Shown here: piece by piece, positions 3,551-64,000 of the stretch | Position numbering within the stretch: position 1 is the stretch's first letter | Layout: every line of letters begins with the position of its first letter | Source: an uncultured Candidatus Saccharibacteria bacterium | GTDB taxonomy: Bacteria > Patescibacteriota > Minisyncoccia > Phycocordibacterales > UBA9973 | Reading direction: 5' to 3' | Assembly: GCA_964622505.1 (NCBI GenBank) | Contig: CAZUQJ010000002.1 | Location: forward strand, 71,905 to 135,904 | Length of the DNA: 64,000 nt | Position numbers and translations under genes: made by a program | The notes under the pieces: generated by a model | Told to the model about the DNA's origin: nothing | The model's input: only the letters and a program-made list of their open reading frames with translations | Databases searched by the model: none

Positions 3551-3554
3551 ATGA

Positions 3555-5045: not shown

Positions 5046-5226
5046 TTGGTTACCATTTTAAAGGCTTTTTGGGCGATTCTGTCTGTTTTTGCACCCTTTT
5101 TCCACTTTTTGGTTTGACTTGACCCCCTATTTCGGCTACCCTCTATATATAGGTGTACAGGCCTATAAATCTCGAGACGGAAGCACTTTACTTTACAGAC
5201 AGACGATCAGAATTACCCATTTTACC

Positions 5227-6480
5227 ATGAGTATTCAACACTATAAAAAGAAGCCTACGAGCGAAAATTCTTTGCAAAAAGAAACAGCCGTACCTTCTAA
5301 AATATCTATATTTTACAAGCCTTTTATACTAAAAGGTTTTTCCGTTTTACTCCTACTTGCCCTCATCCTCTTACCTGTTAGCAAGGCAAATGCCGGCTTT
5401 TTCTCCTCTATTGGCCAGTTTTTTGGTATGGGTGCGGAAGCTTCCGAGAATGAGAGTCTCGGTACTAATACCAATTCCCAGACCATGCGCCTAATGGAGC
5501 CAACCCTTACCCCAGAGCTCAAACTTGGTTCTACGGCTCTCGATATGACTATTGTCGACGACCAAGCCTTGGAATCCAACAACATGGGCCCATTGGGAGT
5601 AAGCGATATTGAGCAAAAATACGTTACTACAAAGAAAATTCAAACACATACTGTAGTATCAGGCGATACTCTAGAGAAAATCTCTAAAAAGTTCGGAATT
5701 TCCAAAAATACCCTTATAAATTCAAACGACTCCTTGTCTGCTAAGGGTAGCCTCAAGGTGGGCCAAGTTCTCGCTATCTTGCCTGTGGAGGGTATAGCCT
5801 ATGATGTAAAGAAGGGCGATACGATAGAGAGTTTGGCTCGCAAGTACAATTCATCTGCAAAAGAGATCCTCAAGTATAACAGCTTGGACGATGCATCCGA
5901 CTTGCAAATTGGCGATACTATTGTTCTACCAGGTGGCAAAAAGCTTGTAGCCAAAGTCACAGAGAAGAAAGTCGAGGTCCCAAAGCCTACAAGGCCTACA
6001 CAAATAGAGGAAGATACTCCGCAACAAACGCAACCCACACCATCTGACCCAACACCTACAGAGAAGTCGGATTCAACCCCATCTTCAAACGGATACATCT
6101 GGCCATTCCCTCTAGGTGCAGGAAGTGTATCCCAACGTCTACATGATGACAATGCTATAGACTTGCGAGCACCAAAAGGTACTCCAATATATGCGATCAA
6201 AGACGGAACTGTGCTAATCGCCGACTCCGCGGGCTACAATGGAGGGTACGGACAGTATGTCGTTATTGACTTCGATGCAGGGGGCCAAGCATTGTACGGA
6301 CACATGAGCAAAGTTGCATCTGTCGCTGGTCAGAAAGTTGCCCAAGGTGACTTGATCGGATACGTCGGCTCGACAGGGCTCTCTACTGGCAACCACTTGC
6401 ATATCAGTCTGCGTGACGGGCTCAAGAATCCGTACGCATTCTTGAAGAAAGGAGGCACGAGCGCAGATTTCAATAAATAA
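5227..6480 (+). CDS. LysM (x2) + M23 family metallopeptidase (peptidoglycan endopeptidase)
   Basis: Two LysM repeats (HTVVSGDTLEKISKKFGIS..., YDVKKGDTIESLARKYNSS...) and M23 motifs HDDNAIDL...GYGQYVVIDF...STGLSTGNHLHISL. ORF opens at 5089 but the start is probably ATG 5227 (MSIQHYKK), just before the TM/signal segment. Confidence 0.85.
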   Translation: MSIQHYKKKPTSENSLQKETAVPSKISIFYKPFILKGFSVLLLLALILLPVSKANAGFFSSIGQFFGMGAEASENESLGTNTNSQTMRLMEPTLTPELKLGSTALDMTIVDDQALESNNMGPLGVSDIEQKYVTTKKIQTHTVVSGDTLEKISKKFGISKNTLINSNDSLSAKGSLKVGQVLAILPVEGIAYDVKKGDTIESLARKYNSSAKEILKYNSLDDASDLQIGDTIVLPGGKKLVAKVTEKKVEVPKPTRPTQIEEDTPQQTQPTPSDPTPTEKSDSTPSSNGYIWPFPLGAGSVSQRLHDDNAIDLRAPKGTPIYAIKDGTVLIADSAGYNGGYGQYVVIDFDAGGQALYGHMSKVASVAGQKVAQGDLIGYVGSTGLSTGNHLHISLRDGLKNPYAFLKKGGTSADFNK

Positions 6481-6487
6481 AACGAGT

Positions 6488-6778
6488 ATGAAGTTTTCTA
6501 AAACAATTTTAATTATTACGAGTTTCTTTATAAGCTTTACGCTATTCTTTGGAAGTTTCAGTCCAGTGTTCGCTGCAACCACTACTGTCAAGAAAACAAC
6601 AACAGTAAAAAAGTCTGCGACCAAGAAAGCACCGGCAAAAAAGAAAGTATCAAAAAAGAAAAGTTCTGTAAACCTCAATCCCCCGCGCATAACGCTTGCA
6701 ACCGCTCCGCACTCAGAAAAGAAGTCCAAAGCAAAAAAGAAGACAACAAAAAAGCCGGTAGTAAAAAAGAAAGCATAA
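6488..6778 (+). CDS. Small secreted lysine-rich protein
   Basis: Signal peptide (ILIITSFFISFTLFFGSFSPVFA) then KKTTTVKK/AKKK repeats; followed by a strong hairpin terminator. Confidence 0.4.
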   Translation: MKFSKTILIITSFFISFTLFFGSFSPVFAATTTVKKTTTVKKSATKKAPAKKKVSKKKSSVNLNPPRITLATAPHSEKKSKAKKKTTKKPVVKKKA

Positions 6779-6782
6779 AAAA

Positions 6783-6815
6783 TTCCCCCAGAGCTTGTCG
6801 AAGGGGAATTTTTTA
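6783..6815. terminator. Bidirectional hairpin terminator (ttccccc-agagcttgtcga-aggggaa + T run)
   Basis: Perfect 7-bp stem and T tract between convergent genes; its loop is shared with the hairpin at 62611..62647. Confidence 0.6.
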
Positions 6816-6816
6816 T

Positions 6817-8502
6817 TTAGGCAACTTCTTGTTGGTAGCAACTTTCGCAATAAATAATTTCTTTTCTGTCTGGAGCGTAGCTAGTCTGGAATGTTTCAGC
6901 GCATGTTGTACCTCCGTGATTGATATGCTTTTCAATAGTACACACACATTTACCCGGATACAATTTACGCGGGTTTCTTTTTGCCATTCTGGCTTGATGC
7001 CTACATTCGAAGTCCTTGTGTGGAATTGGTAAATTCATTCGTTTATAGAAATCAAATTCAGCTTTTGTTATTTTGTAATTCTTGCCACACTCATTACAAG
7101 CCAATATTTCTGAAGTAATTGCATCAGTCACAGTTGTAATACTCGAAGGTATTGTATTCTCGGGCATTGTTTCTTTACCAAAGGTGCCCGTGTTCTTTTC
7201 TTGCCAGCGATACCCCCTTTTTAAAGCCTCATTTCTTTCTAAAGGGAAAAAGTCTTGAGCCAGTGTTTCATTGTACCCAAAAGGTGCAATGTCTGTAGGG
7301 AAAAATTGACCATACTCTTTTTCTTTTTTCATTTGGTTTTCGATTTTTTCTTTTATTTTGAAATATTCTTCTTTTGAGTATGGCTTATTAAGGATCATAT
7401 AGTTACCTTTACGCACAGCAATACATCCAAACGCATTAGATAGATGATGACAGCTTTCACAATACTCAACTTCATTGCAATAAAAAACAAATGCTGAATT
7501 TTTTAATTTACTTCCTTCTAGCGCTCCCATTATATTGTATCCAAACTCTGGCTTATAGTAATAGTTGTTGCAGTCCATACTGTCTATAGGATTCTCTGAG
7601 TCTGTCATGTATGAGCAATTTTTAGAATCATATGTATCAAAAAGCATAACTCCCTCGTGACAGTTGTGCAGATAGTCTCCAGTGACATTATGGCATTTTG
7701 TTTGTGAAGTATATTTTCTAATGGCTTGAAGTTTTATCTCCTCAAAATCTTTTTTTGCCTTCTCTATTGTTTTGAAGCTCTCAAGGATTTCTTTTTTCTT
7801 TTTTTCAAATTCTTCTTTTGTGTATTTTACATTTAAAATAGAGTTTGACATGTGTCGGCCGTTTGTACAAAATATGCAATTTGATGAGTCTCGCATATTG
7901 AAACAAAACAGTAGGTCGGTAGAAGATTGGCATTGCTCAGAGTACATGCACTTAAAGCATGAGCGACAGTCCGTACATTCGTAGCAAAGTTCTGACTCAT
8001 GTAGAAATGCACAGTCTACACAAAATTTATCACGTTGCAAGAGTCTCCCGTACATACAGTCTTCGTTATAGTCAGCAGCGAATATTAAATAACAATCTTT
8101 ATTTTCTGCTGAACCGTTTGTGTACTCACTACGTACATTGTTAAAAGCCATTAAGCTTAATCTAGGCACCTCTTGTTGCAAGGCTTTGTACTGTTCAAAA
8201 AAAGATTTAGAAAAATCATAATCCACCCCGTAATCTTTTGGATCCCAGCCATCACCCCACCAGCAGTCATGACAATAGACTTTAAATGGTGATTCAGGTG
8301 TATACACAGTAATCATATCTTTGTTGCACATATCGCAAGGCCTTTTATAGAATGTTCTCTCGTTGCGGAAATTCAGTCGTTTGGCCATTCTGCAATCAGG
8401 GCAGAAAAGCGGGTGTGGGCTCTTCATCTGCTCATAAAAAACTATATCTTCGTCGCGAATTACAAATTCCTTTTCGCATGTCTTGCATAGTTGGTTAATC
8501 AT
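6817..8502 (-). CDS. Cysteine-rich protein with zinc-ribbon modules at both termini (paralog 1 of 3)
   Basis: N-term CKTCEKEF...FYEQMKSPHPLFCPDCRMAKRLNFRNERTFYKRPCDMCNK...YCHDCWW, central CxxC-dense repeats, C-term CNECGKNYKITKAEFDFYKRMNLPIPHKDFECRHQARMAKR...YCESCYQQEVA. Same layout in 29955..31652 and 31713..33494. Confidence 0.7.
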   Translation of the reverse strand: MINQLCKTCEKEFVIRDEDIVFYEQMKSPHPLFCPDCRMAKRLNFRNERTFYKRPCDMCNKDMITVYTPESPFKVYCHDCWWGDGWDPKDYGVDYDFSKSFFEQYKALQQEVPRLSLMAFNNVRSEYTNGSAENKDCYLIFAADYNEDCMYGRLLQRDKFCVDCAFLHESELCYECTDCRSCFKCMYSEQCQSSTDLLFCFNMRDSSNCIFCTNGRHMSNSILNVKYTKEEFEKKKKEILESFKTIEKAKKDFEEIKLQAIRKYTSQTKCHNVTGDYLHNCHEGVMLFDTYDSKNCSYMTDSENPIDSMDCNNYYYKPEFGYNIMGALEGSKLKNSAFVFYCNEVEYCESCHHLSNAFGCIAVRKGNYMILNKPYSKEEYFKIKEKIENQMKKEKEYGQFFPTDIAPFGYNETLAQDFFPLERNEALKRGYRWQEKNTGTFGKETMPENTIPSSITTVTDAITSEILACNECGKNYKITKAEFDFYKRMNLPIPHKDFECRHQARMAKRNPRKLYPGKCVCTIEKHINHGGTTCAETFQTSYAPDRKEIIYCESCYQQEVA

Positions 8503-8524
8503 AGATATTTTTAATATAGCATAA

Positions 8525-10117
8525 TTATTGATTAGTGCGAGGGCGGTATTGGAGGGCTTCTAGGATGTGGGGAATTTGGATGTGCTCGCTACTCTCTAGA
8601 TCGGCGATGGTGCGGGCGAGTTTGATGGTGCGGTGGTATGCGCGAGCAGAGAGTTGGAGATGCTCGGCACTCTGATTCAATATTTTCTTGACCTCGTCTG
8701 CGAGTGGTGCAAAAGTATTTAAATCTTTTGAATTCATATCGCTATTTGTTTTGATTTTTCTTGTAGCTTTTTTGAATCTTTTTTCTTGTATACTTCGTGC
8801 ATTTTTCACTCGACTCTTTATTATATTTGTCGGAGTGCTATTGAGATCTTTGCCCGAGAGTTCGTCGTAGCCGACGTTGCTGACGGTGACCCACATATCA
8901 ATACGGTCCATGATTGGCCCCGAAAGCTTGCGATTGTAGCGGTCCAGATCGGTTGGCTTACAAATGCACGCTTTCTGTTTGTTGCCTTTGTGTCCGCAAG
9001 GGCATGGGTTCATTGCAGCAATCAAAATAAAGTTGGAGGGGAATGTCGCTGAGCCTTTTGCACGCGAAATGGAGACGATGTTGTCTTCGAGTGGCTGGCG
9101 CAAAGATTCCAAAACACGTTTTTCAAATTCTGGAAATTCGTCCAGAAATAGGACGCCTTTGTGTGCGAGCGTCACTTCGCCAGGGCGTATATTTGCCCCA
9201 CCACCAATCATAGCGACATAGCTTGCAGTATGGTGTGGTGCACGAAATGGCGCATCGGTAATCAACTTGCCTTCAAGCATGCCAACGATAGAATGTATGC
9301 CAGTGATTTCTAAAATATCTTCGTTGTCGAGATCTGGAAGTATGTACGAAAATGCACGTGCAAGCATTGTCTTGCCAGTTCCTGGAGGACCCGATAGTGC
9401 AATGTTGTGTCCACCAGCGGCAGCGATTTCCAATCCCCTTTTGGCATTCTCTTGACCCTTCACATCTTGGAAATCGGTCCTATTTTCAACTACCGATTTT
9501 TCTATTATAGTTTTTGGGAATTTGGTAAGCTTTGGTTTCTCTTTCTCAAGCGGATTGCCTTTTTTGTCGTATCTAATTTTGTAAATATGATTGATCACTT
9601 CAATCAGAGTCTTTGCGCCATAAATGTCTATTCCATCTACAAGCCCCGCTTCTTCGGCATTGTCATAAGGCAAGAAAATTTCTTTGTAGCCCAAGCGTTT
9701 AGCCTCTTGTGTTAGTGGCAGAGCACCTTTTATAGGGCGGAGTTCCCCATTGAGTGACAACTCCCCGAGGAATACTCTACTTTCTGGGTCGAAATATGTT
9801 TGATTTGCAGAGAGCAAGTATGAGAGTGCTATACCTAGGTCGAAATACGACCCTTCTTTTTTCAAGTCAGCTGGCGAGAGTGATATGACCACCTTTTGAT
9901 TTTGGCTTTTTGGAGATTCGTAGCCAGAATTTTTGAGCGCAGAGCTCATGCGGTCTTTTGCTTCATCGACAGCTTTGTCGGGTAGCCCTACCATAGTAAA
10001 AGCGTGGAGAGTATTTGGAGTAATATCAACTTCTATCGTAACAATCTTGCCTTTTAGCATGTATGGTTGCGCCGCGTAGACTCTTGAGAATGACATAATA
10101 AATAGTATAGCAAACAA
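8525..10117 (-). CDS. comM: YifB/ComM family Mg-chelatase-like AAA+ ATPase
   Basis: Lon-like N-domain, Walker A LSGPPGTGKTMLARA, MNPCPCG zinc motif, C-terminal Mg-chelatase domain. Start may be the internal Met MSFSRVYAAQPYML. Confidence 0.9.
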   Translation of the reverse strand: MFAILFIMSFSRVYAAQPYMLKGKIVTIEVDITPNTLHAFTMVGLPDKAVDEAKDRMSSALKNSGYESPKSQNQKVVISLSPADLKKEGSYFDLGIALSYLLSANQTYFDPESRVFLGELSLNGELRPIKGALPLTQEAKRLGYKEIFLPYDNAEEAGLVDGIDIYGAKTLIEVINHIYKIRYDKKGNPLEKEKPKLTKFPKTIIEKSVVENRTDFQDVKGQENAKRGLEIAAAGGHNIALSGPPGTGKTMLARAFSYILPDLDNEDILEITGIHSIVGMLEGKLITDAPFRAPHHTASYVAMIGGGANIRPGEVTLAHKGVLFLDEFPEFEKRVLESLRQPLEDNIVSISRAKGSATFPSNFILIAAMNPCPCGHKGNKQKACICKPTDLDRYNRKLSGPIMDRIDMWVTVSNVGYDELSGKDLNSTPTNIIKSRVKNARSIQEKRFKKATRKIKTNSDMNSKDLNTFAPLADEVKKILNQSAEHLQLSARAYHRTIKLARTIADLESSEHIQIPHILEALQYRPRTNQ

Positions 10118-53173: not shown

Positions 53174-54352
53174 TTATTCTGTCCCGTCATCGACTAAGCC
53201 ATCTTCTATAATTATATCACTTTCATTATCATCTGTAACACTCCCTGCTGTTGGCATGCCTTTGATATCAATTCTCCAACCTGTGAGCTTGGCTGCGAGG
53301 CGTACATTTTGGCCACCTTTACCGATTGCAAGTGATAGCTGATCCTCGGCAACTTCTACTTGAGCTTTGTGGTCTTCTTCATTGATCTCTATGTCAGTAA
53401 CATTTGCTGGAGAGAGTGCGCTTGCGACGAATTCTCTTGGATTCTCGGACCATGGAATGATGTCTATCTTCTCACCACCAAGCTCACTCATGACTGTTGT
53501 TACACGGATACCTTTCTGGCCCACACAAGATCCGACAGGATCGATGTGATCATCGTTTGAATACACAGCAATTTTAGAACGTGAGCCTGGCTCGCGAGCG
53601 ATGGATTTGATTTCCACCACTCCGCTTGCTATCTCAGGAGCTTCGAGTTCAAAGAGTCCTTGGATCAATTTTGGATTTGTACGAGAAAGTTTGAGGTTTA
53701 TTCCACGAGGAGATTCCTCCACACTATACAAGTATGCACGGATGCGCTCGCCACGGCGGTAGAATTCACCAGGGATTTGCTCTTCTGGAGGCATGATACC
53801 TGTTGCACGGTCGAATTCGATATATACAACTCCACGCTCTACTTTCTGCACGAAGCCATTTATGATCTGGCCTTCTTTGCCACCGTATTCATCCATTACA
53901 GAATCGCGTTCTGCTTCACGGATTTTTTGGATTATAACTTGCTTGGCAGTTTGGGCTGCGATACGGCCGTAGTCTTCTTTGGATTCAAGAGGGAAGATTA
54001 TTTCTTCTTCAAGTTCGGCACCGCTCTTGATCTTCATAGCATCGTTTAGCATGATGTGGTGCTCTTCATTGTAGCGGACTCGTTCGTCGCCTTCTTCTAT
54101 CTCTTCTTCCTCTTCACCTTCGAGGACTATGCGGACCAAAGAATCGTCCACGACGATTTTGACTTGGTAGAATTCTGTCTCGCCTGTCTCCATATTGAAA
54201 TGGGCACGGATGATCTGGCCTTTTTTGCCGTAATCTTTCTTGTAAGCGGCAGCCATAGCTTGCTCGATGGCTTCGAGAATTTTGGCTTTTGGTATTTTGC
54301 GCTCTTGCTCGAGTTGCTCGAGAGCGGATTTCATTGTTTTGAGATCTAACAT
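53174..54352 (-). CDS. nusA: Transcription termination/antitermination factor NusA
   Basis: N-terminal domain, S1 domain, two KH domains (GSCVGQKGIRV..., IGKGGQNVRLA...). Confidence 0.9.
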   Translation of the reverse strand: MLDLKTMKSALEQLEQERKIPKAKILEAIEQAMAAAYKKDYGKKGQIIRAHFNMETGETEFYQVKIVVDDSLVRIVLEGEEEEEIEEGDERVRYNEEHHIMLNDAMKIKSGAELEEEIIFPLESKEDYGRIAAQTAKQVIIQKIREAERDSVMDEYGGKEGQIINGFVQKVERGVVYIEFDRATGIMPPEEQIPGEFYRRGERIRAYLYSVEESPRGINLKLSRTNPKLIQGLFELEAPEIASGVVEIKSIAREPGSRSKIAVYSNDDHIDPVGSCVGQKGIRVTTVMSELGGEKIDIIPWSENPREFVASALSPANVTDIEINEEDHKAQVEVAEDQLSLAIGKGGQNVRLAAKLTGWRIDIKGMPTAGSVTDDNESDIIIEDGLVDDGTE

Positions 54353-54526
54353 TTTAGCTTTTAGCTACTAGGAACTAGGTGCTAGCTAGAATCCAGAAGC
54401 TTTTTATTAAATTTTTGATTAAAAAAAGTCCAGCTTTCGGGGCGGACTAATACATATACAGTATACTATTTGACCACTTTTTGCAAGAGTTAGATTACGT
54501 ATCTTAAGTATTACAATACTTCTACC

Positions 54527-54565
54527 AATAAAAAGATCGATAGCGGAAAAGCTATCGATCTTTTT
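54527..54565. terminator. Hairpin aaaaagatcgatagc-ggaaaa-gctatcgatcttttt
   Basis: 10-bp perfect stem + T run after the stop of 54569..55780. Confidence 0.55.
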
Positions 54566-54568
54566 ATT

Positions 54569-55780
54569 TTAAGCTACACAAGGTAGCATAATGCAATCAA
54601 GCGAACCGTGTACGTCTGGAGTATGACGGCCTGTTATTTTAGCGTCAATCACATCCCCGTTCTCCCCAATGTAGGCAGTCAGACGTAGGTACCAGTCACT
54701 TTTTAGTAGTTGACCATTTGTTCCGTAATGTGGAATAAAGAACTTTTTTTGGTCAATAGATTCTTGGGCAATGTAGGATGAATGTCGCAACTTGGTTGCT
54801 TTGTTAAATTCATCATGATTTTGATTGGCAAACCATACTCCGTGCGACCCACTCTCTACATCTTTTTTTAAAATGAATTCTTTGTTCTGGAACCAAGAAT
54901 TATTTTTTGGAAAATGTTTGCCAAGCACTACGGTTGGAGGTACATACCGACGCAGTAGCTCTATGGAGTCAGAGAAAAATGCTTTGTTCAGCTCTTCAAA
55001 CTGAAAGTCCAACGTAGGGTTTGAAATGACCCCAAGTAAACCTTTGGAAGATAGCCATGGTGAAAGTGGATAAAGAAATTTTTCAGGTTGATTTAAATAC
55101 ATTTTAATCAACTTTTCTCGCATGGGTAACTCTTCTTTCCAGTTCATGCCCCAAGGAACCATGTCGATGATATCTTCATCAAGAATCATTACACTTTCGG
55201 TAAAAGCATCCTGTAAAACCATATGAACACCATGTTGGTTGAGAATACGTTGCATCTGCTTAAAGATTTGCTCGTAGAAGCGCTCTCGGTGAGCATACAT
55301 CCACACAAGTCTTTTTTCTCCAACGAAATCTTTTAATACACTTTTTACACCAATAAAAGATGGATCTTCTCCAAAAATGTCACGTAAAAAAAGTGCTACA
55401 GGAATAGGTCGCGAATTGTAAGAATCGATCTCTGCAATGTTTAGGTTCTCATCGTGGTCAATCATAACATCTACTTTTGCAATTGGAATATTTTTTTCAG
55501 GATACGTAATAGGCAATCCATCAGTGGCCTGTTTACATATGTTGTAAACAGTTTGGGTTGCTAAATTTTGGTTGCCATGATGGCCACAAAAATCTAGTAA
55601 ACCACTAACCCCTTTATGATAGCAGGAAGTTAGTTGTCCAATTTCTTTTAATTGCCGCATTATATTTGGTTTTAAAAGAAATGGTTCCGGTGATAGTTTA
55701 TACCCGTATCTAGGGTCGGGTTCTGTAGACCAATAACCATTATCTAAATGGTACGCTACTAAATCTTTGTACGTTTTCAT
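54569..55780 (-). CDS. Hypothetical protein; weak resemblance to glutathionylspermidine-synthase/ATP-grasp-like enzymes
   Basis: 403 aa, no TM; tentative by size and fold impression only. Confidence 0.35.
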   Translation of the reverse strand: MKTYKDLVAYHLDNGYWSTEPDPRYGYKLSPEPFLLKPNIMRQLKEIGQLTSCYHKGVSGLLDFCGHHGNQNLATQTVYNICKQATDGLPITYPEKNIPIAKVDVMIDHDENLNIAEIDSYNSRPIPVALFLRDIFGEDPSFIGVKSVLKDFVGEKRLVWMYAHRERFYEQIFKQMQRILNQHGVHMVLQDAFTESVMILDEDIIDMVPWGMNWKEELPMREKLIKMYLNQPEKFLYPLSPWLSSKGLLGVISNPTLDFQFEELNKAFFSDSIELLRRYVPPTVVLGKHFPKNNSWFQNKEFILKKDVESGSHGVWFANQNHDEFNKATKLRHSSYIAQESIDQKKFFIPHYGTNGQLLKSDWYLRLTAYIGENGDVIDAKITGRHTPDVHGSLDCIMLPCVA

Positions 55781-55869
55781 TGCATTATTTTTTTATAAAA
55801 GGACAATTCGCATCTTTGTGATACGACACTGGCAGTGTCTCTACATGACCAATGTCCTCGCACAAAAAT

Positions 55870-56316
55870 TTAAATAATATCTCTTACTTCTTCAAGGGTC
55901 AGCACAATGTGATCTGGGTCTCCGCTTTCTTCCGTTGGCCCTTCTTCAGCAAATTTTCCGTTTTTGAACCATACGGTCGTATAGCCAAGTTTATTGCCCG
56001 TGGCAATCTCAGACGATATACGGTCTCCAATAACATACACCTCAGTATAGTTATTTCCAATAATTTCCGTGAAGAGATCAGTTGTCTTTGTGTCTACGTA
56101 ATGGACGCTCTTAAAGAAATTCTCAATGCCAAGCTCAGCTACAAGTGTATTGCGACCTTCGCCATTTTTGGAGACAAGGAAACAGTCATATGATGTATAC
56201 GCATGTTCTAATAAATTTTTGGCGAAAGGGTTGAGAGTTCCAGTTTCTGGATTATAGATGGTCCTCATAAAATCGAATATGACGGCTTGATCTTTCATAG
56301 GTATAAAGTGTAGCAA
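55870..56316 (-). CDS. HAD-like hydrolase (short)
   Basis: Motif-III-like VYVIGDRISSEIATG; N-terminal motif I is atypical. Confidence 0.45.
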   Translation of the reverse strand: MLHFIPMKDQAVIFDFMRTIYNPETGTLNPFAKNLLEHAYTSYDCFLVSKNGEGRNTLVAELGIENFFKSVHYVDTKTTDLFTEIIGNNYTEVYVIGDRISSEIATGNKLGYTTVWFKNGKFAEEGPTEESGDPDHIVLTLEEVRDII

Positions 56317-56367
56317 CTACAAATACCATGTCAAGCACTTGGTAGCCATTTTTATTTATGGTAAAAT

Positions 56368-56730
56368 TTGCTTATGGATAATACTGTTTTACCACAGACT
56401 GAAAATAGCACTCCAAAGAAACCTTTTATTTACAAAAAGAGCATTATCGTGTCGCTTTCTATCATTGTCGTTTTTGCATTGGCAATTTACTTCTTCCTCA
56501 AATATAAGAAAACAACAGTTGAAGCCCCAAAGCCAATGACGAAAGAAGAGAAAATCGATATATTGAATCGTTTAAACAAAAATCCACCAAATGACGGCTC
56601 GGTGAGTATGACTACAGACGAGAAGTTGCAGATTTTAGATACTATATCTACCAAGAAGGGTGACCCAAATACAAAAAAGAAGCCATCGACCCCAGAGGAG
56701 CAACAGCAAATGTTTAACTCAATAGAGTAA
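56368..56730 (+). CDS. Small hypothetical membrane-anchored protein
   Basis: TM helix IIVSLSIIVVFALAIYFFL then a charged tail. Confidence 0.4.
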   Translation: MLMDNTVLPQTENSTPKKPFIYKKSIIVSLSIIVVFALAIYFFLKYKKTTVEAPKPMTKEEKIDILNRLNKNPPNDGSVSMTTDEKLQILDTISTKKGDPNTKKKPSTPEEQQQMFNSIE

Positions 56731-56749
56731 TTCAAGAATAATCAATAGC

Positions 56750-58126
56750 ATGCAAACAAATATTCATTTTAAAAATATAGTACAGAAGTTTGGAGTCATT
56801 GCTCTCGGTATTGTATTTGCTCTCGGTGCAAGCTATGTGTCGGCTATGAGTAGGCCTGCCGATATTTCTACCCCTGCCCCAGAAGTTTTGAATGTAGGAG
56901 AGGCCACACAGGTCAAGCCGGGCTTGATTAGTCTGCTCGGATTTACCGCTGGCGACTATGCCGACAAGGATAATTTTAATTACACAGCAATTGATAAATT
57001 GGGCATTATGTCTATTGGTAAAAAAGAGACTCCAGAGTTTTCAAAAGGCATTAGTCTGGATATTGCTGGCACAACTGGAATACTTGGTACTATTCGTTCA
57101 AAAGATTTGGAAAGCTCTGGGCTCAAAGAAGTCTGTGCTGATTCGACAGGCAAAATTATTTTCTGTACAAAAGCAAAAGAACTTGTTTCGGCCGATTCCG
57201 AAGAGCCGACTTACTATGGATTGATGGTCCCAGAAGGAGTGAAATCTATCACAGTAGAGATGTATGGTGGTGGCGGATCAGGGTATGGGAAAGCCAATAG
57301 TAATACTGGGGTAGATAACGGACAATCATCCTATATAATCGGAGACGGAGTTAGTATTGTTGCCGAGGGGGGACAGGGGGCAGATATATATAGCACTGGA
57401 GGCAAGGGCGGCAAGGTTGTAATCACAGGTAGTGGTGTAAGTGTGGACACAAAACAAGAGGATGCAAATGGATCTGCTCCGGGATCATTTACCGCCAATC
57501 CTTCACAGTATGGATCAAGCTCTACTTGTAGTGGTACCGTATATTCTACAATTAAAGGAGCGAATGGAAATGTCGGAGGTAAAGGGGGCAAGCCGTACAA
57601 TGGATCCAATGCAAGTGGAGGGTCTGCAGGTTCTGCTGGTCCGACATCTGGTACTTACAAGAGTAAAGCTTGGAACTTCAACATTATTTCAAGCGAGACA
57701 ACCCCCCCAGTAAATAGAACAAATTGTGATTATGCTACCCAGTCAAGCGATGAATATGTACCAAGTCAGTATATAAATAACCGCCCAGGAGGCAACGGTG
57801 CTAGTGGAGCGAGCTACGGAGCAGGGGGTGCAGGCTTTGGGGGCAAAGGCGGACTGTCAGCCGTGTATTCAGGAAGTATAAATAATTGCACAGAATGTTT
57901 TGGAGGGGACGGCAGTGCAGGAGGCGGTGCGGGAGCGTATGTAAAAGCTAAATTCAATACTCAAGCTGGAAGTACCTATTATGTAAAAGTTGGTAATGGA
58001 GGTAAACATGCAGGGTATAGTTGTAATGGTGGTGGTGGATCAAATAGCTGTTTAAATGATCTTGGTGGTGGTGCAACCCCTGGAGCGGGATATCCAGGCT
58101 ACGTAAAAGTAACATACAATAATTAA
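56750..58126 (+). CDS. Secreted glycine-rich protein (shared N-terminal module + Gly-rich C-terminal domain), paralog A
   Basis: Signal peptide; KLGIMSIGKK...LKEVCADSTGKIIFCTK; YGLMVPEGVKSITVEMYGGGGSGYG then GG/GxG-rich stretch. Confidence 0.5.
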   Translation: MQTNIHFKNIVQKFGVIALGIVFALGASYVSAMSRPADISTPAPEVLNVGEATQVKPGLISLLGFTAGDYADKDNFNYTAIDKLGIMSIGKKETPEFSKGISLDIAGTTGILGTIRSKDLESSGLKEVCADSTGKIIFCTKAKELVSADSEEPTYYGLMVPEGVKSITVEMYGGGGSGYGKANSNTGVDNGQSSYIIGDGVSIVAEGGQGADIYSTGGKGGKVVITGSGVSVDTKQEDANGSAPGSFTANPSQYGSSSTCSGTVYSTIKGANGNVGGKGGKPYNGSNASGGSAGSAGPTSGTYKSKAWNFNIISSETTPPVNRTNCDYATQSSDEYVPSQYINNRPGGNGASGASYGAGGAGFGGKGGLSAVYSGSINNCTECFGGDGSAGGGAGAYVKAKFNTQAGSTYYVKVGNGGKHAGYSCNGGGGSNSCLNDLGGGATPGAGYPGYVKVTYNN

Positions 58127-58129
58127 TAT

Positions 58130-58510
58130 ATGCAAAAAAATAATTTAAAATTTTTCATCCTCGCATTCCTAACAGTATTTACTTTGCAAGTAGTCGGGGC
58201 GTATACTTCTGCTCCATCATCGGGACCTACAAGCAACAACACAATTGCTCCAATGAATGATTCAGCAGACAACAATAGCAAATATTCTGGCTTGGGGGTC
58301 AAAGAATTGATCTCTGGCGACACAGGTGTGATCGCCGTAGACGTGTCTGGCAACATGGGCGTCAATACAAGTTCCGCACCAACCGATGTACGATTGGAGG
58401 TAGGAGGATCTATAAAGATAAAAGACTTGGCTGGTACAGGGACTCGCGCTATATGCGCAAGTACAACAGGCTCAGCCAACGAAGGTTACCCACTTGTAAT
58501 ATGTCCTTAA
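58130..58510 (+). CDS. Small secreted protein carrying only the shared N-terminal module
   Basis: Signal peptide; LGVKELISGDTGVIAVDVSG...AICASTTGSANEGYPLVICP parallels the N-modules of the 56750 and 58515 proteins. Confidence 0.45.
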   Translation: MQKNNLKFFILAFLTVFTLQVVGAYTSAPSSGPTSNNTIAPMNDSADNNSKYSGLGVKELISGDTGVIAVDVSGNMGVNTSSAPTDVRLEVGGSIKIKDLAGTGTRAICASTTGSANEGYPLVICP

Positions 58511-58514
58511 TTAT

Positions 58515-59870
58515 ATGAAAAATAGTATGAAAAACATTTTAATAATAGCTGTAGCATTCCTCTTTTTTGGGTACGTTGTATACGCCGACCCTACTAATGT
58601 ACCGGTAACAGAGAATATAGATGCCCCGATTACTCAGCTGGATTATCCTCAAGACAAAAATGGGGCTTTGATTGTAAACAAACTCTCTGTCGGTGACTGG
58701 AAAGATTCTGCTGGTAATTTTGTTGTCTTTACTTCGACAGGCAAACTCGGTATTAAACAGACCGCTTCGAGCCTAAGTGCAATAACAGAATACTTGGAAG
58801 TAGAATCAGGCAAAGTGCGACTTTCTGAGTTATCGGTTCCTGGGGTAGAAGTATGTGCTGACTCGAAAGGCAACTTGGTACAATGTCAGTCGACAATATT
58901 TAGTCATTCCGGCAATGACACAAAAGCATACGAGACATATAGCTTCAAAGTCCCAGCAGGAGCAAAAAAATTGATTGTAGAACTTTATGGTGCTGGTGGA
59001 GCTGGGTATTTTTTAAGCTCGAGTAGCTACGATAGGTCACCAGATGACTATTCCGGTTGTGGTAAAGGGAGTGGGGGTTCTTATTCTTGTGCAAGTGGTG
59101 GATCTGCATTTTTCTATGATACTGATGGTACAACTACACTACTTCAAGCAAAAGGTGGTAAAGTCGCAACAGGAAAGCATACAGGGGGCACTGGGGGTTC
59201 AACATATGTGAATACGAGTTCTTCAAAAGTTGAAACAAGCGGAAAAGTTGAGACAAGTGGAACAAACGGAGAAGCTGGAGAAAATGGAGTAGCCAAAGAT
59301 ACCAGTCAGACATTTAAATGCGGAACAACATACACCGCAACGATAGGTGGGATGGGTGGTGCAGGTGGTGCAGGTGGAAATGCAGGCAAGGGTGGCAAAA
59401 CTCCTGGTGGAAATGGTGGTAGGGGTGGAGCAACTATTTTAGAATTAACAGAATATGAGAGGTGTGTAGATATGTTCTATTCATTCAATAAGGGTAAAGG
59501 GTATCTATCTGAGGGTGGAGTTAATGGTCAATTTGGTGGTGGTGGTAGTGGGGCTGGAGGTATTGGTGGGTATTCCGATAGAGGCGGAGATTTTGCAAAT
59601 GAGAATGAATCACTTTGCTCAAAAGGTGCTACTTGCCCAGGATCTGATCAAGGTTATGCAGGTGGTGGTGGGGGTGGATACGCAAAAGCAACAGTCACGG
59701 TTAGTGGTGGGCAGACATATACGATCAAGCTTTCTCATGGAGGAGCGGTACAAGGTATTACAGAAGATAAGGGAGATGTATGGTGCTACGATCGTGTAAA
59801 AGATGTATGTCATAGTGGATCACGTAGCGGTCATGGCTCTGGTGCTTATGCAAAAATTACAGTGAATTAA
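58515..59870 (+). CDS. Secreted glycine-rich protein, paralog B
   Basis: Signal peptide; KLGIKQTASS...VEVCADSKGNLVQCQ; YSFKVPAGAKKLIVELYGAGGAGY then a Gly-rich region. Confidence 0.5.
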   Translation: MKNSMKNILIIAVAFLFFGYVVYADPTNVPVTENIDAPITQLDYPQDKNGALIVNKLSVGDWKDSAGNFVVFTSTGKLGIKQTASSLSAITEYLEVESGKVRLSELSVPGVEVCADSKGNLVQCQSTIFSHSGNDTKAYETYSFKVPAGAKKLIVELYGAGGAGYFLSSSSYDRSPDDYSGCGKGSGGSYSCASGGSAFFYDTDGTTTLLQAKGGKVATGKHTGGTGGSTYVNTSSSKVETSGKVETSGTNGEAGENGVAKDTSQTFKCGTTYTATIGGMGGAGGAGGNAGKGGKTPGGNGGRGGATILELTEYERCVDMFYSFNKGKGYLSEGGVNGQFGGGGSGAGGIGGYSDRGGDFANENESLCSKGATCPGSDQGYAGGGGGGYAKATVTVSGGQTYTIKLSHGGAVQGITEDKGDVWCYDRVKDVCHSGSRSGHGSGAYAKITVN

Positions 59871-59948
59871 ATATTTAAATTTATTACCATAAATAAAAAC
59901 AGCCACTTGGAAAGTGGTTGTTTTTATTTTGAGAGAATTTTATATAAT

Positions 59949-60716
59949 CTAATTTTTTATTAGTTTATATACTTTATTGTCGGTATGTAAGAAATACATT
60001 CCGGGTATAAAGTTAGAAGTTTCGATTGTTGCAGAATCTGTTGATCCTGTGTAAACAGTTTGCCCTAAAGTATTTGTGATTGTGATTGGTTGAATTTCAT
60101 TGAAATTCAATAGATCAATATGATCACTAAAGGGATTTGGATATATTGTTAGATTGGATTTTGGGTTGTTGATTCCTGTTGAACCAGGTTTTTGACCATA
60201 AACAAGAGTTTGTTTTAGTGGATCATAGTAACTTGGTTCAAAACCATCAAGACCCATTGCAAGTTTGATTTGGATGTCTAAGCTGTCTCCTAGTGCGATA
60301 CCTGACATATCTAAATCGGCAGTAATCCTTAATTTTACATAGCTACGACCCAATGGAAAATTGGGAGGTAAATTAAAACTGGATTTATACCAAGATATAT
60401 CTCCGTAGTACGACAAGGTATCGTAGGGTGGTCTCATTAAGGACACTTTAAGGTTACTTAGTAACCAAGGTTTCCCAGATGAAGTTACGTCACCGTAGAT
60501 AATTTGAAGCCACGCACGATCTTCAACTTGGTGGGTTTCATTACCCTTGATCTCAATTTCATATACTATGTAATCGGCATATATATTGCTATCAATGGGG
60601 TGTAGTACGGTTCTGTGCTCTAGGGGTTCTTTAAACCCTTGAGCCATACCCTGAGGTATGTAGATGGCGACCAAAAACATGGTCCAAAAGAGTGTTTGAA
60701 TTATTCTATTTTTCAT
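59949..60716 (-). CDS. Secreted protein with C-terminal T9SS-type (Por secretion tail-like) sorting domain
   Basis: Signal peptide; C-terminal ~70 aa LTIYPNPFSDHIDLL...LGQTVYTG...FIPGMYFLH...KVYKLIKN shows the YPNP, GxY and K-I/L-K-terminal motifs of the type-A CTD. Confidence 0.5.
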   Translation of the reverse strand: MKNRIIQTLFWTMFLVAIYIPQGMAQGFKEPLEHRTVLHPIDSNIYADYIVYEIEIKGNETHQVEDRAWLQIIYGDVTSSGKPWLLSNLKVSLMRPPYDTLSYYGDISWYKSSFNLPPNFPLGRSYVKLRITADLDMSGIALGDSLDIQIKLAMGLDGFEPSYYDPLKQTLVYGQKPGSTGINNPKSNLTIYPNPFSDHIDLLNFNEIQPITITNTLGQTVYTGSTDSATIETSNFIPGMYFLHTDNKVYKLIKN

Positions 60717-60946
60717 GATATTAGCGATTAGTTTAGAAAAGACCCTTGTAAAATCTACTCTAAACTAACCACTAATACATGTCGAAACTTCTATTATCAA
60801 TGTACAGACAGTACTTAAATATATTATAGTATAGATATCTAGACTATGTCAACAAATTCAAGGTAGTTATCCACAGGTCCGATTTTGGCCTTATTTTAGA
60901 GGATATTTCCTTGCTCGCAGACTTGTATATATAGTATAATAATAAA

Positions 60947-62587
60947 ATGAAATTTAAGTTCTCAACATTGGCAAAAATCTCTATAATCGCCTTTTCTTTT
61001 GCTATTTTTCTACTATCTCCGAGTTATGTAAAAGCTGGGGCTGACGACAACGTCTTTGGCTCTGCTTGGAGCAACAATGTGGGCTGGATTACCTTCAATA
61101 GCTGTACAAACCCGACCCCAAACTATATTGGGACTAGTTGTGGTTCTGTAGATTACGGTGTTCATTTCGACAAAACAACTTTGGAAGTCAAAGGTCACGC
61201 TTGGAGTGACAATGTAGGCTGGATTAGCTTCAATCCTAGTGATTGGGGAGGCACTTGCTCTCCTTCGGGAGCATCTTGCAGTGGTTTCAAAAATAAATGG
61301 CAATCTGGTGGCTGGGCACGTGTTGTCTCTGCTAAATCCGGGACAAATACTGGAGGATTTGACGGATGGATCTCGCTTGGAGGATCAAATTATGAAGCAC
61401 CTTTTGATACAAGTACAGAGATTTCAGCTTCAATGCCGGCAGACTATGTCGACAATGACATCTATACAATCAAGACATCTGCCAATGGTTTTTGGTGGGG
61501 TTCGGAAGTTGTAGGGTGGATCGATCTGAAGCGGACCAGTAGTTATGACCCAGCTGACGGAGGAATATTCTTGGTAGATCTCTCTACCGACACGCTTGAG
61601 CTGACATCAAGTGCTACCGACAACACTGTAGTGGCCGGAGATCTTGTAGATAATATACACTGGAAAGCCACAGGTTTTGTACCAACAGAATGTATAGGTA
61701 CAATGTTCGACAGCAAAGGCAAGCCGATCCTCAACGATGATTGGAATGACACATTTACTTACTCTACTGTAACAGAAGGAGATATAGGTCCGATCGAAGT
61801 GCCATACGATTTCCCAAACAATGCAAAGAAAATCGCAACAAAATTTACCTTACTTTGTAAAAATACGGTAAAGAGTGCGGCGCAAACTATTACTATCTAT
61901 GCTGAGCCACTAAATGTTTTCTTGAAGGCTACCAACATGTGTGCCTCGGGTGGTACAGCCAAGCTAGAATGGTATGCAGATGGCAATACAAATCAATTTT
62001 GTGAGATAGAGGCCACTCCAGCCTCAGGTGGGTCAGGTCCTTATACAGTAGCAGTAACAGGCACATCTCCAGGAACAGCAGACGACACGGACTTTGGCAC
62101 CAACCAAGGTAGTGGGCCGACAAGCTATGTACTATCTTGCGTGAATGGAACAGGGACATATCAGGATCCTATCCCTGCCAAGACAACAAGTACCGTAAAG
62201 GTAAAAGAATGTACTTCAGATTACACAGTGGGATACAGCCCCAATTGTCAGCCATTTACTCTCGTGGGCACCTCGTACGAAGCAACCGTAGAGCTCAGTG
62301 TAACTCCACAGTCTGGCTTTACTGATGATGTGACAGTATCCGACGGAGGAGGCCTCGGGTCATGGACATTTAGCACGTCGGATAAATTTACTTACACCTC
62401 CCCAAATTTCTCAAAAGTAGATGCAACACTAACACTCTCTAAACTCGAGTATAGTTCTATCAACTGGAGCTTGGCATTTACCAGAGATGCACTTTTTGAT
62501 GCAGTGGGCTTGTCCACAAAAACTGAATCGATTAAATTCTGTGAGTCAGGCACAAAGCTTGTTAAACCAAAATACGTTCCATTCTAA
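60947..62587 (+). CDS. Secreted repeat protein (four W-S-x-N-V-G-W-I-x-F-N-like repeats) with Thr/Ser-rich C-terminal region
   Basis: Signal peptide; AWSNNVGWITFNSC, AWSDNVGWISFNPS, GFDGWISLGG, GFWWGSEVVGWIDL. Confidence 0.5.
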   Translation: MKFKFSTLAKISIIAFSFAIFLLSPSYVKAGADDNVFGSAWSNNVGWITFNSCTNPTPNYIGTSCGSVDYGVHFDKTTLEVKGHAWSDNVGWISFNPSDWGGTCSPSGASCSGFKNKWQSGGWARVVSAKSGTNTGGFDGWISLGGSNYEAPFDTSTEISASMPADYVDNDIYTIKTSANGFWWGSEVVGWIDLKRTSSYDPADGGIFLVDLSTDTLELTSSATDNTVVAGDLVDNIHWKATGFVPTECIGTMFDSKGKPILNDDWNDTFTYSTVTEGDIGPIEVPYDFPNNAKKIATKFTLLCKNTVKSAAQTITIYAEPLNVFLKATNMCASGGTAKLEWYADGNTNQFCEIEATPASGGSGPYTVAVTGTSPGTADDTDFGTNQGSGPTSYVLSCVNGTGTYQDPIPAKTTSTVKVKECTSDYTVGYSPNCQPFTLVGTSYEATVELSVTPQSGFTDDVTVSDGGGLGSWTFSTSDKFTYTSPNFSKVDATLTLSKLEYSSINWSLAFTRDALFDAVGLSTKTESIKFCESGTKLVKPKYVPF

Positions 62588-62610
62588 TTTTGAAATAATG
62601 TGTCACACAA

Positions 62611-62647
62611 AAAATCCTCCTGAGCTTGTCGAAGGAGGATTTTTTGT
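62611..62647 (+). terminator. Hairpin aaaaaatcctcct-gagcttgtcga-aggaggattttttg
   Basis: 7-bp stem + T run; loop is identical to the hairpin at 6783-6815 while the stems differ by compensatory changes. Confidence 0.6.
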
Positions 62648-62684
62648 GTGAATATTTGTTCGTCGTATGATATAATTTAATCAT

Positions 62685-64000
62685 ATGCAAGTTGATGATA
62701 CAAAAATGCTCGATCTCATACGCGATTCCAATCTTGTAAGCAAGGCGGACTTAGATGATGCTCTCAAAAAATCAAAAGAATCAGGGACTCAAGTCGGACA
62801 GATCCTAGTAAGTGCAGGCAAGCTGACTGAAAAAGATTTCCGCAACATGGAAGCACTGGTTCTGGGTATCCCTTTTATAAGTTTGAAAGATGAAAAGATC
62901 GAGTTCACTGTCTTGTCACTGATCCCAGAACCGATTGCCCGCAAGAACAATATCATTGCTTACAAAAAAACTCCGACAACACTCGAGGTCGCCATGCTCG
63001 ATGTTGAGGATTTGTCAGTTATTGATTTTATAAAGAAAAAAGTCGGTTTGAAAATTCTACCACGCCTTACCACTAGCGACTCTATCAAAGGAGCATTGGC
63101 TCAGTACAAAAAGACACTCGAGGCCGACTTCGAAGATATAATTAAAAAGGAATCCGGATCACTTAAGACGCTGACTGACCAGACGACAGATGAAGGTAAG
63201 AGTGAAAAAGAATTGAAAGAATTGGCCGAAGACCTGCCGATCATCAAGATTGTGGAGACACTAATTTCGCACGCGATCTTGCAAAATGCATCTGATGTGC
63301 ACATTGAGCCCTGCGAGGATAAAGTAGTAGTAAGATATCGCATCGATGGAATCTTGCACGACGCCATGACACTGCCGAAAGAAACTGCTCCGGGTATAAC
63401 AGCTCGTATCAAAGTTCTTTCAAATTTGAAACTCGATGAAAAGCGTTTACCACAAGACGGGCGTTTCAAAATGGAAAACGACCAAGGCAGAGTTTCCTTC
63501 CGTGTTTCTACGCTACCAACATACTATGGAGAAAAGACCGTCATGCGTATCCTCCACGAGGATGCAAAAGGATTTTCTCTCGAGGGTCTTGGGTTCCACG
63601 GCGAAGCACTGGAGCGAATACACGATTCGATGAAGCAACGCATAGGTATGATACTCGCTACTGGACCTACGGGGTCTGGTAAGACAACCACACTATATAC
63701 TATGCTCGATATCCTCAATACCCCAGATGTAAATATTTCTACCATTGAAGACCCGATTGAATATCAAATGCCACGTATCAATCAAACTCAAACTAAATCT
63801 GAAATCGGCCTGACCTTTGCCAACGGGCTCCGTACACTACTGCGTCAGGACCCAGATATTATCATGGTGGGAGAGGTCCGTGATGGAGAAACAGCATCAC
63901 TCTCGATCAATGCTGCTCTTACAGGACACTTGGTGTTGTCTACTATCCACACCAACTCAGCATCAGGCGCTATCCCACGTATGATCGACATGGGAGTAGA
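62685..64000 (+). CDS. pilB: Type IV pilus assembly ATPase PilB/GspE family (C-terminally truncated by window end)
   Basis: Hand translation from ATG 62685: N-terminal GSPII_E domain, Walker A GPTGSGKTTT, Asp box DPIEY, Walker B/His box LRQDPDIIMVGEVRD...TGHLVLSTIHTN; no stop before 64000. Confidence 0.9.
   Translation, partial: MQVDDTKMLDLIRDSNLVSKADLDDALKKSKESGTQVGQILVSAGKLTEKDFRNMEALVLGIPFISLKDEKIEFTVLSLIPEPIARKNNIIAYKKTPTTLEVAMLDVEDLSVIDFIKKKVGLKILPRLTTSDSIKGALAQYKKTLEADFEDIIKKESGSLKTLTDQTTDEGKSEKELKELAEDLPIIKIVETLISHAILQNASDVHIEPCEDKVVVRYRIDGILHDAMTLPKETAPGITARIKVLSNLKLDEKRLPQDGRFKMENDQGRVSFRVSTLPTYYGEKTVMRILHEDAKGFSLEGLGFHGEALERIHDSMKQRIGMILATGPTGSGKTTTLYTMLDILNTPDVNISTIEDPIEYQMPRINQTQTKSEIGLTFANGLRTLLRQDPDIIMVGEVRDGETASLSINAALTGHLVLSTIHTNSASGAIPRMIDMGV

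Follow-up and report, generated by a model that had tools for sequence, protein, structure and literature searches.

The stretch of DNA analyzed here (the window, 64,000 nucleotides of contig CAZUQJ010000002.1) carries three consecutive genes, designated A, B, and C, whose products are predicted to be exported and share an N-terminal module, hereafter the N-module. The three open reading frames (ORFs) are co-directional and separated by gaps of only 3 nt (A to B) and 4 nt (B to C):

56750-58126, forward strand: ORF A, 458 residues; Sec signal at residues 1-32, N-module at residues ~33-143, TNF-like/glycine-rich head at residues ~150-458
58130-58510, forward strand: ORF B, 126 residues; Sec signal and N-module only, terminating at a cysteine hairpin (CASTTGSANEGYPLVICP)
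58515-59870, forward strand: ORF C, 451 residues; Sec signal at residues 1-24, N-module at residues 25-125, TNF-like/glycine-rich head at residues 126-451

All three N-termini combine a lysine-containing, positively charged n-region with a hydrophobic stretch of 15-20 residues and a V-x-A signal peptidase I site, the cleavage sites read by eye from the sequence being VSA↓M in A, VGA↓Y in B, and VYA↓D in C (arrows mark cleavage), and the proteins are thus predicted to be Sec-exported. A regular-expression scan for the class III prepilin signal G↓(F/M)xxxE found none in A, B, or C, nor in any other ORF of the window, and a Pfam scan of the three proteins gave no match to the N_methyl family. Direct family searches of A, B, and C against Pfam, NCBIfam, and PHROGs returned no matches, Pfam giving none for A and C even at E<=1. 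The nearest named homologs are annotated as "Candidatus Nomurabacteria bacterium" and "Patescibacteria group bacterium", and the organism that carries the triad is described here as a Nomurabacteria-like patescibacterium.

Homology among A, B, and C

Pairwise BLASTP with composition adjustment detected only weak similarity between B and A (1e-4) and between B and C (1e-3), and gave no match between A and C; the resemblance was therefore tested with an independent profile. This hidden Markov model (HMM) of the C family was built from 17 proteins, comprising C and 16 database homologs and not a single A or B sequence. When every six-frame ORF of the window was searched with it, ORF A was recovered over its whole length (E=8.5e-33) and ORF B over profile positions 6-121 (E=1.3e-10), and, C itself aside, no other ORF of the 64 kb scored. 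A profile of the N-module likewise retrieved ORF A (E=1.9e-32) and ORF B (E=3.9e-31). A and C are full-length paralogs, and B is the N-terminal module alone, ending one residue beyond the second cysteine of the hairpin in the window and at that cysteine in some relatives. Orthologs of each of the three are kept in more than 10 loci; searches gave five close orthologs of B and 17 homologs of C.

An earlier note, made from the letters of the window, had described three consecutive forward-strand genes with signal peptides and no canonical class III prepilin signal, a module common to all three and standing alone in the middle gene, and the motif Y..VP.G.K.I.VE.YG.GG.GY followed by glycine tracts in A and C. 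Each of these points holds; the module itself exists as described, and only its size, put at ~60 residues, was too short, the conserved region extending over ~100 residues after the signal peptide.

The glycine-rich head of A and C

The C-terminal part of C (residues 126-451) contains 24% glycine, and its principal elements map as follows:

58890-59867, forward strand: glycine-rich head of C; Gly_rich_2 blocks at residues 137-166 and 383-414, insert at residues ~169-382

An exhaustive HMMER search with the C-family profile reached 129 clusters at E<=1e-3, 33 of them at E<=1e-10, among 1.84 billion representatives; the head family is thus narrow. When 112 matches of the profile (E<=1e-3) were scanned against Pfam, 75 carried PF21722 (Gly_rich_2; best 4.6e-23) and 3 carried PF12810 (ALK_LTK_GRD). 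Alignment of the C family by hhalign with a reference set of seven proteins, six of them confirmed as PF21722 above the gathering score, returned two blocks. Block 1 (residues 137-166 of C; probability 96.7%, E 3.3e-10) aligns on the motif Y.F.VP.GVT.I.VEL.GAGGAGY, and block 2 (probability 95.4%, E 1.8e-8) on AGGGGGGY.KA...V.GG.TY.IKLSHGG. In ORF A the corresponding blocks read YYGLMVPEGVKSITVEMYGGGGSGY, with the block 1 motif at residues 155-179, and AGGGAGAYVKAKFNTQAGSTYYVKVGNGG. The two blocks are contiguous in canonical PF21722 proteins and ~215 residues apart in A and C. Neither A nor C reaches the PF21722 gathering threshold of 24.3 bits; the best A-type relative falls just under it (23.6 bits, E 5.9e-5), and 4 of the 17 C-family members match the family weakly (best E 0.021).

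Structure prediction agrees with the profile alignment. In an AlphaFold2 model based on the 17-sequence alignment, residues 125-451 of C were mostly predicted with a local distance difference test score (pLDDT) of 80-95, forming ~12 strands together with long, confident stretches outside helix and strand. Comparison of this head with the viral model library BFVD gave 38 matches at E<=1e-3 (best 7.9e-9), mostly to entries named glycine-rich domain-containing protein, minor tail protein, tail fibre, syn9 gp38, and viral ALK-like kinase. Against the PDB, the best Foldseek matches were the Bxb1 tail tip, the Pam3 fibre, and the ALK glycine-rich domains, all weak (E 0.007-0.2) and with low TM-scores, and the sole match of the C-family profile among PDB sequences was a spurious Gly-linker. 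We conclude that the head is a divergent domain of the PF21722 (Gly_rich_2)/ALK glycine-rich domain type, putatively with the TNF-like plus polyglycine architecture of this class, which is found in phage tail fibres.

Within the insert of C, invariant GGxGG motifs alternate with variable segments, seen as entropy peaks at residues 239-250, 257-271, 309-325, and 360-366. In gp24 of phage Pam3, a TNF-like and glycine-rich pair forms the receptor-recognizing fibre end, its glycine-rich motifs being conserved and its distal tip hypervariable; a likeness to S16 gp38 and the ALK ectodomain is also noted (PMC9608196). At the level of the sequence, C follows the Pam3 gp24 pattern of conserved glycine motifs with variable intervening segments.

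The N-module and its marginal likeness to fibre shafts

Alignment of 30 diverse copies gave a common layout for the N-module, consisting of a leader, a variable stretch, a G.(L/V)G(I/V) unit, and a cysteine hairpin. The leader follows the signal peptide and reads (A)[WY]T.P...P.GN...P(I/L)......Q.K.G.L.V; the middle unit reads G.(L/V)G(I/V)......L.V.G.I.....L, which takes the form (K)LGI....L.V.G.IR..L in the triad; and the hairpin has the invariant form C-A-(D/N)-x2-G-x-L-x2-C with two invariant cysteines. Invariant Cys, Gly, Gln, and Lys positions run through all 30 sequences, and at a glycine content of 8% the module is not glycine-rich. It corresponds to no Pfam family.

When the N-module profile was searched against the whole PDB, only four sequence matches were obtained, all of them marginal and to mosaic adhesive trimer (MAT) fibres of Bdellovibrio bacteriovorus: Bd2133 at E=0.0063 and three others at E 0.24-1.3. 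MAT fibres are Sec-exported trimeric adhesins of this bacterial predator; their beta-helix shafts bear a capping-loop motif V-G-G/N-pi-x-x-P-x-x-x-L and are combined with interchangeable tips or with S74 domains (Caulton et al. 2024, PMC10769870). The alignment falls on the repeated unit sGNvGIG..aPtakLeVaG.i of the MAT fibres, of which each triad protein has a single copy; the MAT entries in the PDB cover C-terminal parts only. An AlphaFold2 model of B was of moderate quality (pLDDT 75, predicted template modeling score, pTM, 0.38), and its nine best Foldseek matches in the PDB were again all Bdellovibrio fibres, at a non-significant E of 0.5-2. Within this limit of a moderate model (pLDDT 75, pTM 0.38), no pilin fold was present among the PDB fold matches of B. 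In the model of C, the N-module was predicted at pLDDT <50.

The module is not confined to the triad. A word-indexed search with its alignment reached 19 proteins. In two N-module relatives, P0148 and P0150, Peptidase_S74 scores above threshold (49.9 and 57.4 bits; 3.9e-13 and 1.8e-15). This domain serves as the intramolecular chaperone of tail fibres and tailspikes. The relative P0091 has several units followed by Gly_rich_2 (53.5 bits). In Bacteroidota-like proteins an analogous unit, NVGIGT..P..KLDVNG...GQVL...G...W, directly precedes Gly_rich_2. More generally, the leader A[WY]TxPxxxPxGNxxxPIxxxxxxQxKxGxLxV and the C-x10-C hairpin open many other patescibacterial secreted proteins, examples being the database proteins P0060, P0084, P0126, P0148, P0150, and P0091; the C-termini behind the module in such relatives are unrelated to one another, being a Cys-rich domain, Peptidase_S74, or nothing at all. 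This distribution suggests that the N-module may be a general export or display handle for which no family model exists.

Conservation and gene neighborhood of the triad

The order A-B-C is found in all loci that cover the three genes, namely the window and L004, L001, L003, L008, L011, L012, L013, L017, L018, and L019, while shorter contigs hold B-C (L015 and L016) or C alone (L006); across these loci the junctions are tight or overlapping. The N-modules group by type across genomes. With the L011 copies set aside, which are strongly diverged and of unassigned type, N-module identity within a type is 30-58% for A, 29-56% for B, and 28-51% for C, as against 14-35% between types. Since the N-modules are closer between orthologs than between types, the triplication is old and each copy individually retained. 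A pattern search based on the first 160 residues of the C-family alignment added only one locus from JGI metagenomes and two from GTDB genomes.

The triad is accompanied by the following genes in the window:

56374-56730, forward strand: small single-pass membrane protein of ~118-120 residues, ending 19 nt upstream of A
59949-60716, reverse strand: secreted protein of 255 residues with a Por_Secre_tail C-terminal domain (PF18962 3.8e-9, TIGR04183 6.6e-9), convergent with C
60947-62587, forward strand: protein D, 546 residues; signal peptide, WSxNxGWIxF repeats, Ig-like region, C-terminal KPKYVPF
62685-64000, forward strand: pilB, type IV pilus assembly ATPase; N-terminal 438 residues, running off the window

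The ~120-residue membrane protein and D travel with the triad, so that together they form a conserved five-gene cluster, located between nusA and the pilus or tpiA genes in every lineage examined, down to ~36% identity. In L001, L011, L013, L017, L018, and L019 the gene just before A or D encodes an ortholog of the membrane protein (BLAST E 3e-9 to 5e-29); the protein has no family match in Pfam or NCBIfam and ends in a charged C-terminal tail. Orthologs of D occur in L001, L003, L008, L011, L013, and L015, either before A or after C. In the window, D contains two strict matches to the repeat WSxNxGWIxF along with degenerate copies, and searches gave no match in Pfam and none among PDB sequences. 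C-termini resembling KPKYVPF (KPTYIPF, RPKYIPN, KPVYKPF) end the D orthologs as well as two BACON-domain proteins of ~1,000 residues (L013, 1397-8181), which suggests that this ending may be a C-terminal sorting or anchoring signal.

Orthologs of the Por_Secre_tail protein adjoin C in L001, L003, L006, L012, L013 (there on the forward strand), and L018. This type A sorting domain of the type IX secretion system (T9SS) occurs here in a patescibacterium, an organism in which neither an outer membrane nor a T9SS is expected. Upstream of the cluster lie tig, ppa, and nusA. An ORF of 403 residues on the reverse strand (54569-55780), between nusA and a HAD-phosphatase gene, has no match in Pfam or NCBIfam; it is kept in the identical contig L004, and NUDIX and dNK genes take its place in L001 and L003.

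The type IV pilus locus downstream

The assembly L004 is identical to window positions 54324-64000 (0 mismatches in 9,677 nt) and extends beyond the end of the window. It holds the complete pilB of 584 residues (PF05157 MshEN and PF00437 T2SSE), then pilC of 405 residues (T2SSF), and minor pilins with the class III signals MNRHTKG↓NTIIE, NSYG↓FALIE, and SG↓YSVVE. Further along in L001 and L003 come a third minor pilin, a 427-residue PilX-like protein, and then tpiA and pgk. The whole pilus locus (L004, 8362-12420; L001, 14166-19919) thus reads pilB, pilC, three minor pilins, a PilX-like protein, and then tpiA/pgk; the PilX-like protein (427-577 residues) has a hydrophobic N-terminus and no family match. 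No major pilin, pilD, pilM/N/O, or pilT was seen in this locus in L004 or L001.

In six independent loci (the window with L004, L001, L003, L006, L008, and L013), pilB lies within 3 kb of C in spite of rearrangements; in L008 it directly follows C, and in L013 all genes are co-directional. In L011 (6890-12743), the membrane protein, D, A, B, and C are followed directly by tpiA and pgk without adjoining pilus genes, and in L018 (Ca. Nomurabacteria SJ250; 905-8696) the cluster is followed by the gene for an unrelated protein of 878 residues and a NUDIX hydrolase gene without an adjoining pilus operon. The link between the triad and the type IV pilus (T4P) genes, one of synteny only, is thus frequent and not obligate, and it is in part explained by shared ancestry, all loci being from one narrow clade. 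Because the Por_Secre_tail gene of the window lies between them and runs convergently, A-B-C and D-pilB are by gene orientation separate transcription units; a scan for consensus promoters and terminators added little.

The earlier note had seen the cluster followed by a repeat-rich secreted protein and pilB, which is correct except that the opposite-strand Por_Secre_tail gene intervenes, and its proposal to look downstream for further pilus genes was rewarded with pilC and three canonical minor pilins. Its suggestion that the triad might be minor subunits of a novel class is not supported: the signals, as read by eye, are of the Sec type, the fold search with the moderate model of B gave no pilin, and the downstream locus already supplies canonical minor pilins. 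On the same grounds the reading of A, B, and C as pilins or pseudopilins is rejected. The note's other suggestion, that they could be adhesins, fared better, since the head falls in a receptor-binding glycine-rich/TNF-like class. As points that would refute its reading, the note had named a match of the glycine-rich domain to phage tail-fibre or other unrelated families and a lack of further pilus genes downstream; the former was found at the profile and fold levels and not at the BLAST level, where none of 50,697 phage records matched, and as for the latter, pilus genes are present.

Discussion

We lean, with moderate confidence, toward the reading that A, B, and C are tail-fibre-like cell-surface adhesins of a Nomurabacteria-like epibiont and not parts of a pilus. 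The triad is probably functionally allied with T4P, its proteins not being pilins themselves. By analogy with the repeat units of trimeric shafts in Bdellovibrio MAT fibres and S74-type phage fibres, the N-module would form a short beta-rich stalk equivalent to one such unit and closed by the disulfide hairpin, and it may hold the proteins together as oligomers and fix them to the cell surface. In the heads of A and C, the glycine motifs would scaffold variable loops that bind receptors on the host cell, as in phage tail-fibre tips, and the head-less B may co-assemble with A and C or serve as an adaptor. D and the ~120-residue membrane protein are candidate anchoring partners. The adjoining pilus could act in the same attachment process, with pili capturing and retracting and the fibres providing close-range specific binding. 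In Saccharibacteria it is T4P that bring about host binding, and further adhesins acting at close range have been put forward (PMC11623550).

Several observations weigh against this reading. A and C have no Pfam match, and even the best-scoring members of the family fall just short of the PF21722 cut-off (23.6 against 24.3 bits); the PDB matches of the C head obtained by Foldseek are poor in both E-value and TM-score; and a tblastn search of 50,697 phage records with the head as query gave no match. The N-module bears a marginal likeness to MAT fibres (E 0.006 by sequence, >0.5 by fold) and was modeled with low-to-moderate confidence, and each N-module holds a single fibre-type repeat, hence the fibre shaft is only putative. 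Surface location, oligomeric state, and binding are all predictions.

Among the alternatives, the one that survives best, and which we still consider unlikely, holds that A, B, and C are non-pilin accessory adhesins carried by the T4P, exported by Sec and, in the manner of PilY1/PilC-type tip proteins, captured by a minor-pilin tip onto which the N-module docks. The persistence of pilB within 3 kb of C in six loci, even where D has moved or the Por_Secre_tail gene is turned around, favors such an arrangement, as do the direct succession of C and pilB in L008, the co-directional genes of L013, and the downstream content of three minor pilins and a PilX-like protein with no other obvious adhesin identified there; non-pilin tip adhesins with non-PilD signals have been discussed for Saccharibacteria (PMC11623550). 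However, L011 (tpiA-pgk) and L018 (unrelated genes) keep the cluster without adjoining pilus genes, a convergent gene separates A-B-C from D-pilB in the window, no propeller, vWA, or pilin-like fold was found (Pfam, and Foldseek of B), and loci from one narrow clade may have inherited their synteny without selection for it. A further elaboration, which we regard as speculative and slightly less likely again, is that A, B, and C are joined by their N-modules into a hetero-oligomeric (e.g., 1:1:1), two-headed mini-fibre mounted on a platform of D and the membrane protein or on the pilus tip, as a cell-borne, phage-like device for receptor binding and host choice in Nomurabacteria-type epibionts, the N-module being a general display handle of many patescibacterial exoproteins.

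It is improbable that the three are structural or protective envelope proteins, whether they belong to a coat of the S-layer kind or to a matrix, or use a flat polyglycine lattice as a surface that binds ice or minerals. Polyglycine-II lattices do occur in antifreeze proteins, and the triad proteins are exported, glycine-rich, confidently folded, and free of enzymatic motifs, with a locus conserved among housekeeping genes. Yet variable segments amid invariant glycine motifs are typical of recognition proteins, and so is the swapping of C-terminal domains (Gly_rich_2, Peptidase_S74, and others) on one N-module; moreover, the family is small (129 clusters), and the repeats typical of lattice-forming coats were not seen.

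It is very improbable that the triad serves a virus and not the cell, its members being tail-fibre genes that belong to a prophage or to the remnant of a domesticated phage. Domains of the head class abound among the tail fibres and minor tail proteins of phages, and N-module relatives carry the phage-type S74 chaperone, but all three proteins have Sec signal peptides, the chromosomal position between nusA and the pilus/tpiA genes is stable in every lineage examined, no capsid, terminase, tail-tube, or integrase genes flank the cluster, and neither PHROGs nor the phage records gave a match; on the Sec signals, the stable position, and the absence of phage genes, this candidate was rejected. 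The weak or negative composition-adjusted BLASTP results and the low complexity of the glycine tracts might have pointed to a low-complexity or chance artefact, a thought that may be dismissed and was ruled out by independent profile statistics (1e-10 to 1e-33) on a shared module of 8% glycine with invariant Cys, Gly, Gln, and Lys positions in 30 sequences, orthologs of each ORF moreover being kept in more than 10 loci.

The domain class PF21722, phage receptor-binding proteins, and cell-borne tail-fibre-like adhesins such as the MAT fibres of Bdellovibrio are already known. New here are a patescibacterial N-module without a family model, an insertion variant of the Gly_rich_2 head, a fixed A-B-C triad with a head-less member, and its recurrent pairing with protein D and a T4P operon. 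Host recognition by uncultivated Patescibacteria is little understood beyond a few Saccharibacteria, where T4P and close-range adhesins are implicated; the cluster offers concrete adhesin candidates from a lineage of the Parcubacteria type, and their build recalls both the receptor-binding proteins of phages and the fibres with which Bdellovibrio recognizes its prey. If the favored reading is true, phage, predator, and epibiont, three independent lifestyles that depend on other bacteria, would use one structural solution. The immediate impact is limited by the narrowness of the family (129 clusters among 1.84 billion representatives) and by the uncultured state of the organisms.

Comparison with known systems

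With type IV minor pilins and pseudopilins the triad shares its genomic neighborhood only; it lacks a class III signal, an N-methylation motif, and, in the moderate model of B, a pilin fold match, and has signal peptidase I sites instead. The PilY1/PilC tip adhesins are alike in Sec-type export, in being encoded beside minor pilin genes, and in their presumed adhesive role. In contrast to them, the triad has no beta-propeller or vWA domain and no homology in Pfam or NCBIfam, the cluster also occurs without an adjoining pilus operon, and the head is a predicted sandwich with a glycine-rich region.

The likeness to PF21722/PF12810 proteins (Pam3 gp24, S16 gp38, and the ALK/LTK ectodomain) extends over the hallmark motifs VP.GV..I.VE.WGAGG and GGGGGGY.KA...V..G..Y.I.VG.GG with the final strand, and over a confidently modeled, putative beta-sandwich plus glycine-rich region in which conserved glycine motifs alternate with variable segments. 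The window proteins differ in scoring below the Pfam threshold and in having the hallmark blocks of PF21722 ~215 residues apart and not contiguous, and the domain is carried here by a Sec-exported cellular protein, not by a virion fibre or a receptor kinase.

The MAT fibres provide the only PDB sequence matches (E 0.0063 for the best) and the best fold matches (E 0.5-2) of the N-module, and by this marginal sequence likeness they would be its closest analogue, short of proven membership. The MAT fibres are larger (~600-1,150 residues), with long trimeric beta-helix shafts of many repeats where the triad proteins have one repeat-like unit and a disulfide hairpin, and the consulted passages on them describe no three-gene A-B-C arrangement with a head-less member; among the PDB matches, no structure-solved MAT tip is of the glycine-rich type. 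A possible interplay of MAT fibres with type IV pili has been raised by their authors (PMC10769870). In an analogous architecture, both systems join a signal peptide to a conserved N-terminal module (~100 residues here, ~130 residues and beta-rich in MAT) and end in variable C-terminal tips or an S74 chaperone, A and C carrying a Gly_rich_2-type tip, and both consist of cellular, not viral, fibre-like proteins from a bacterium that makes its living on others, as is predicted for the organism studied here.

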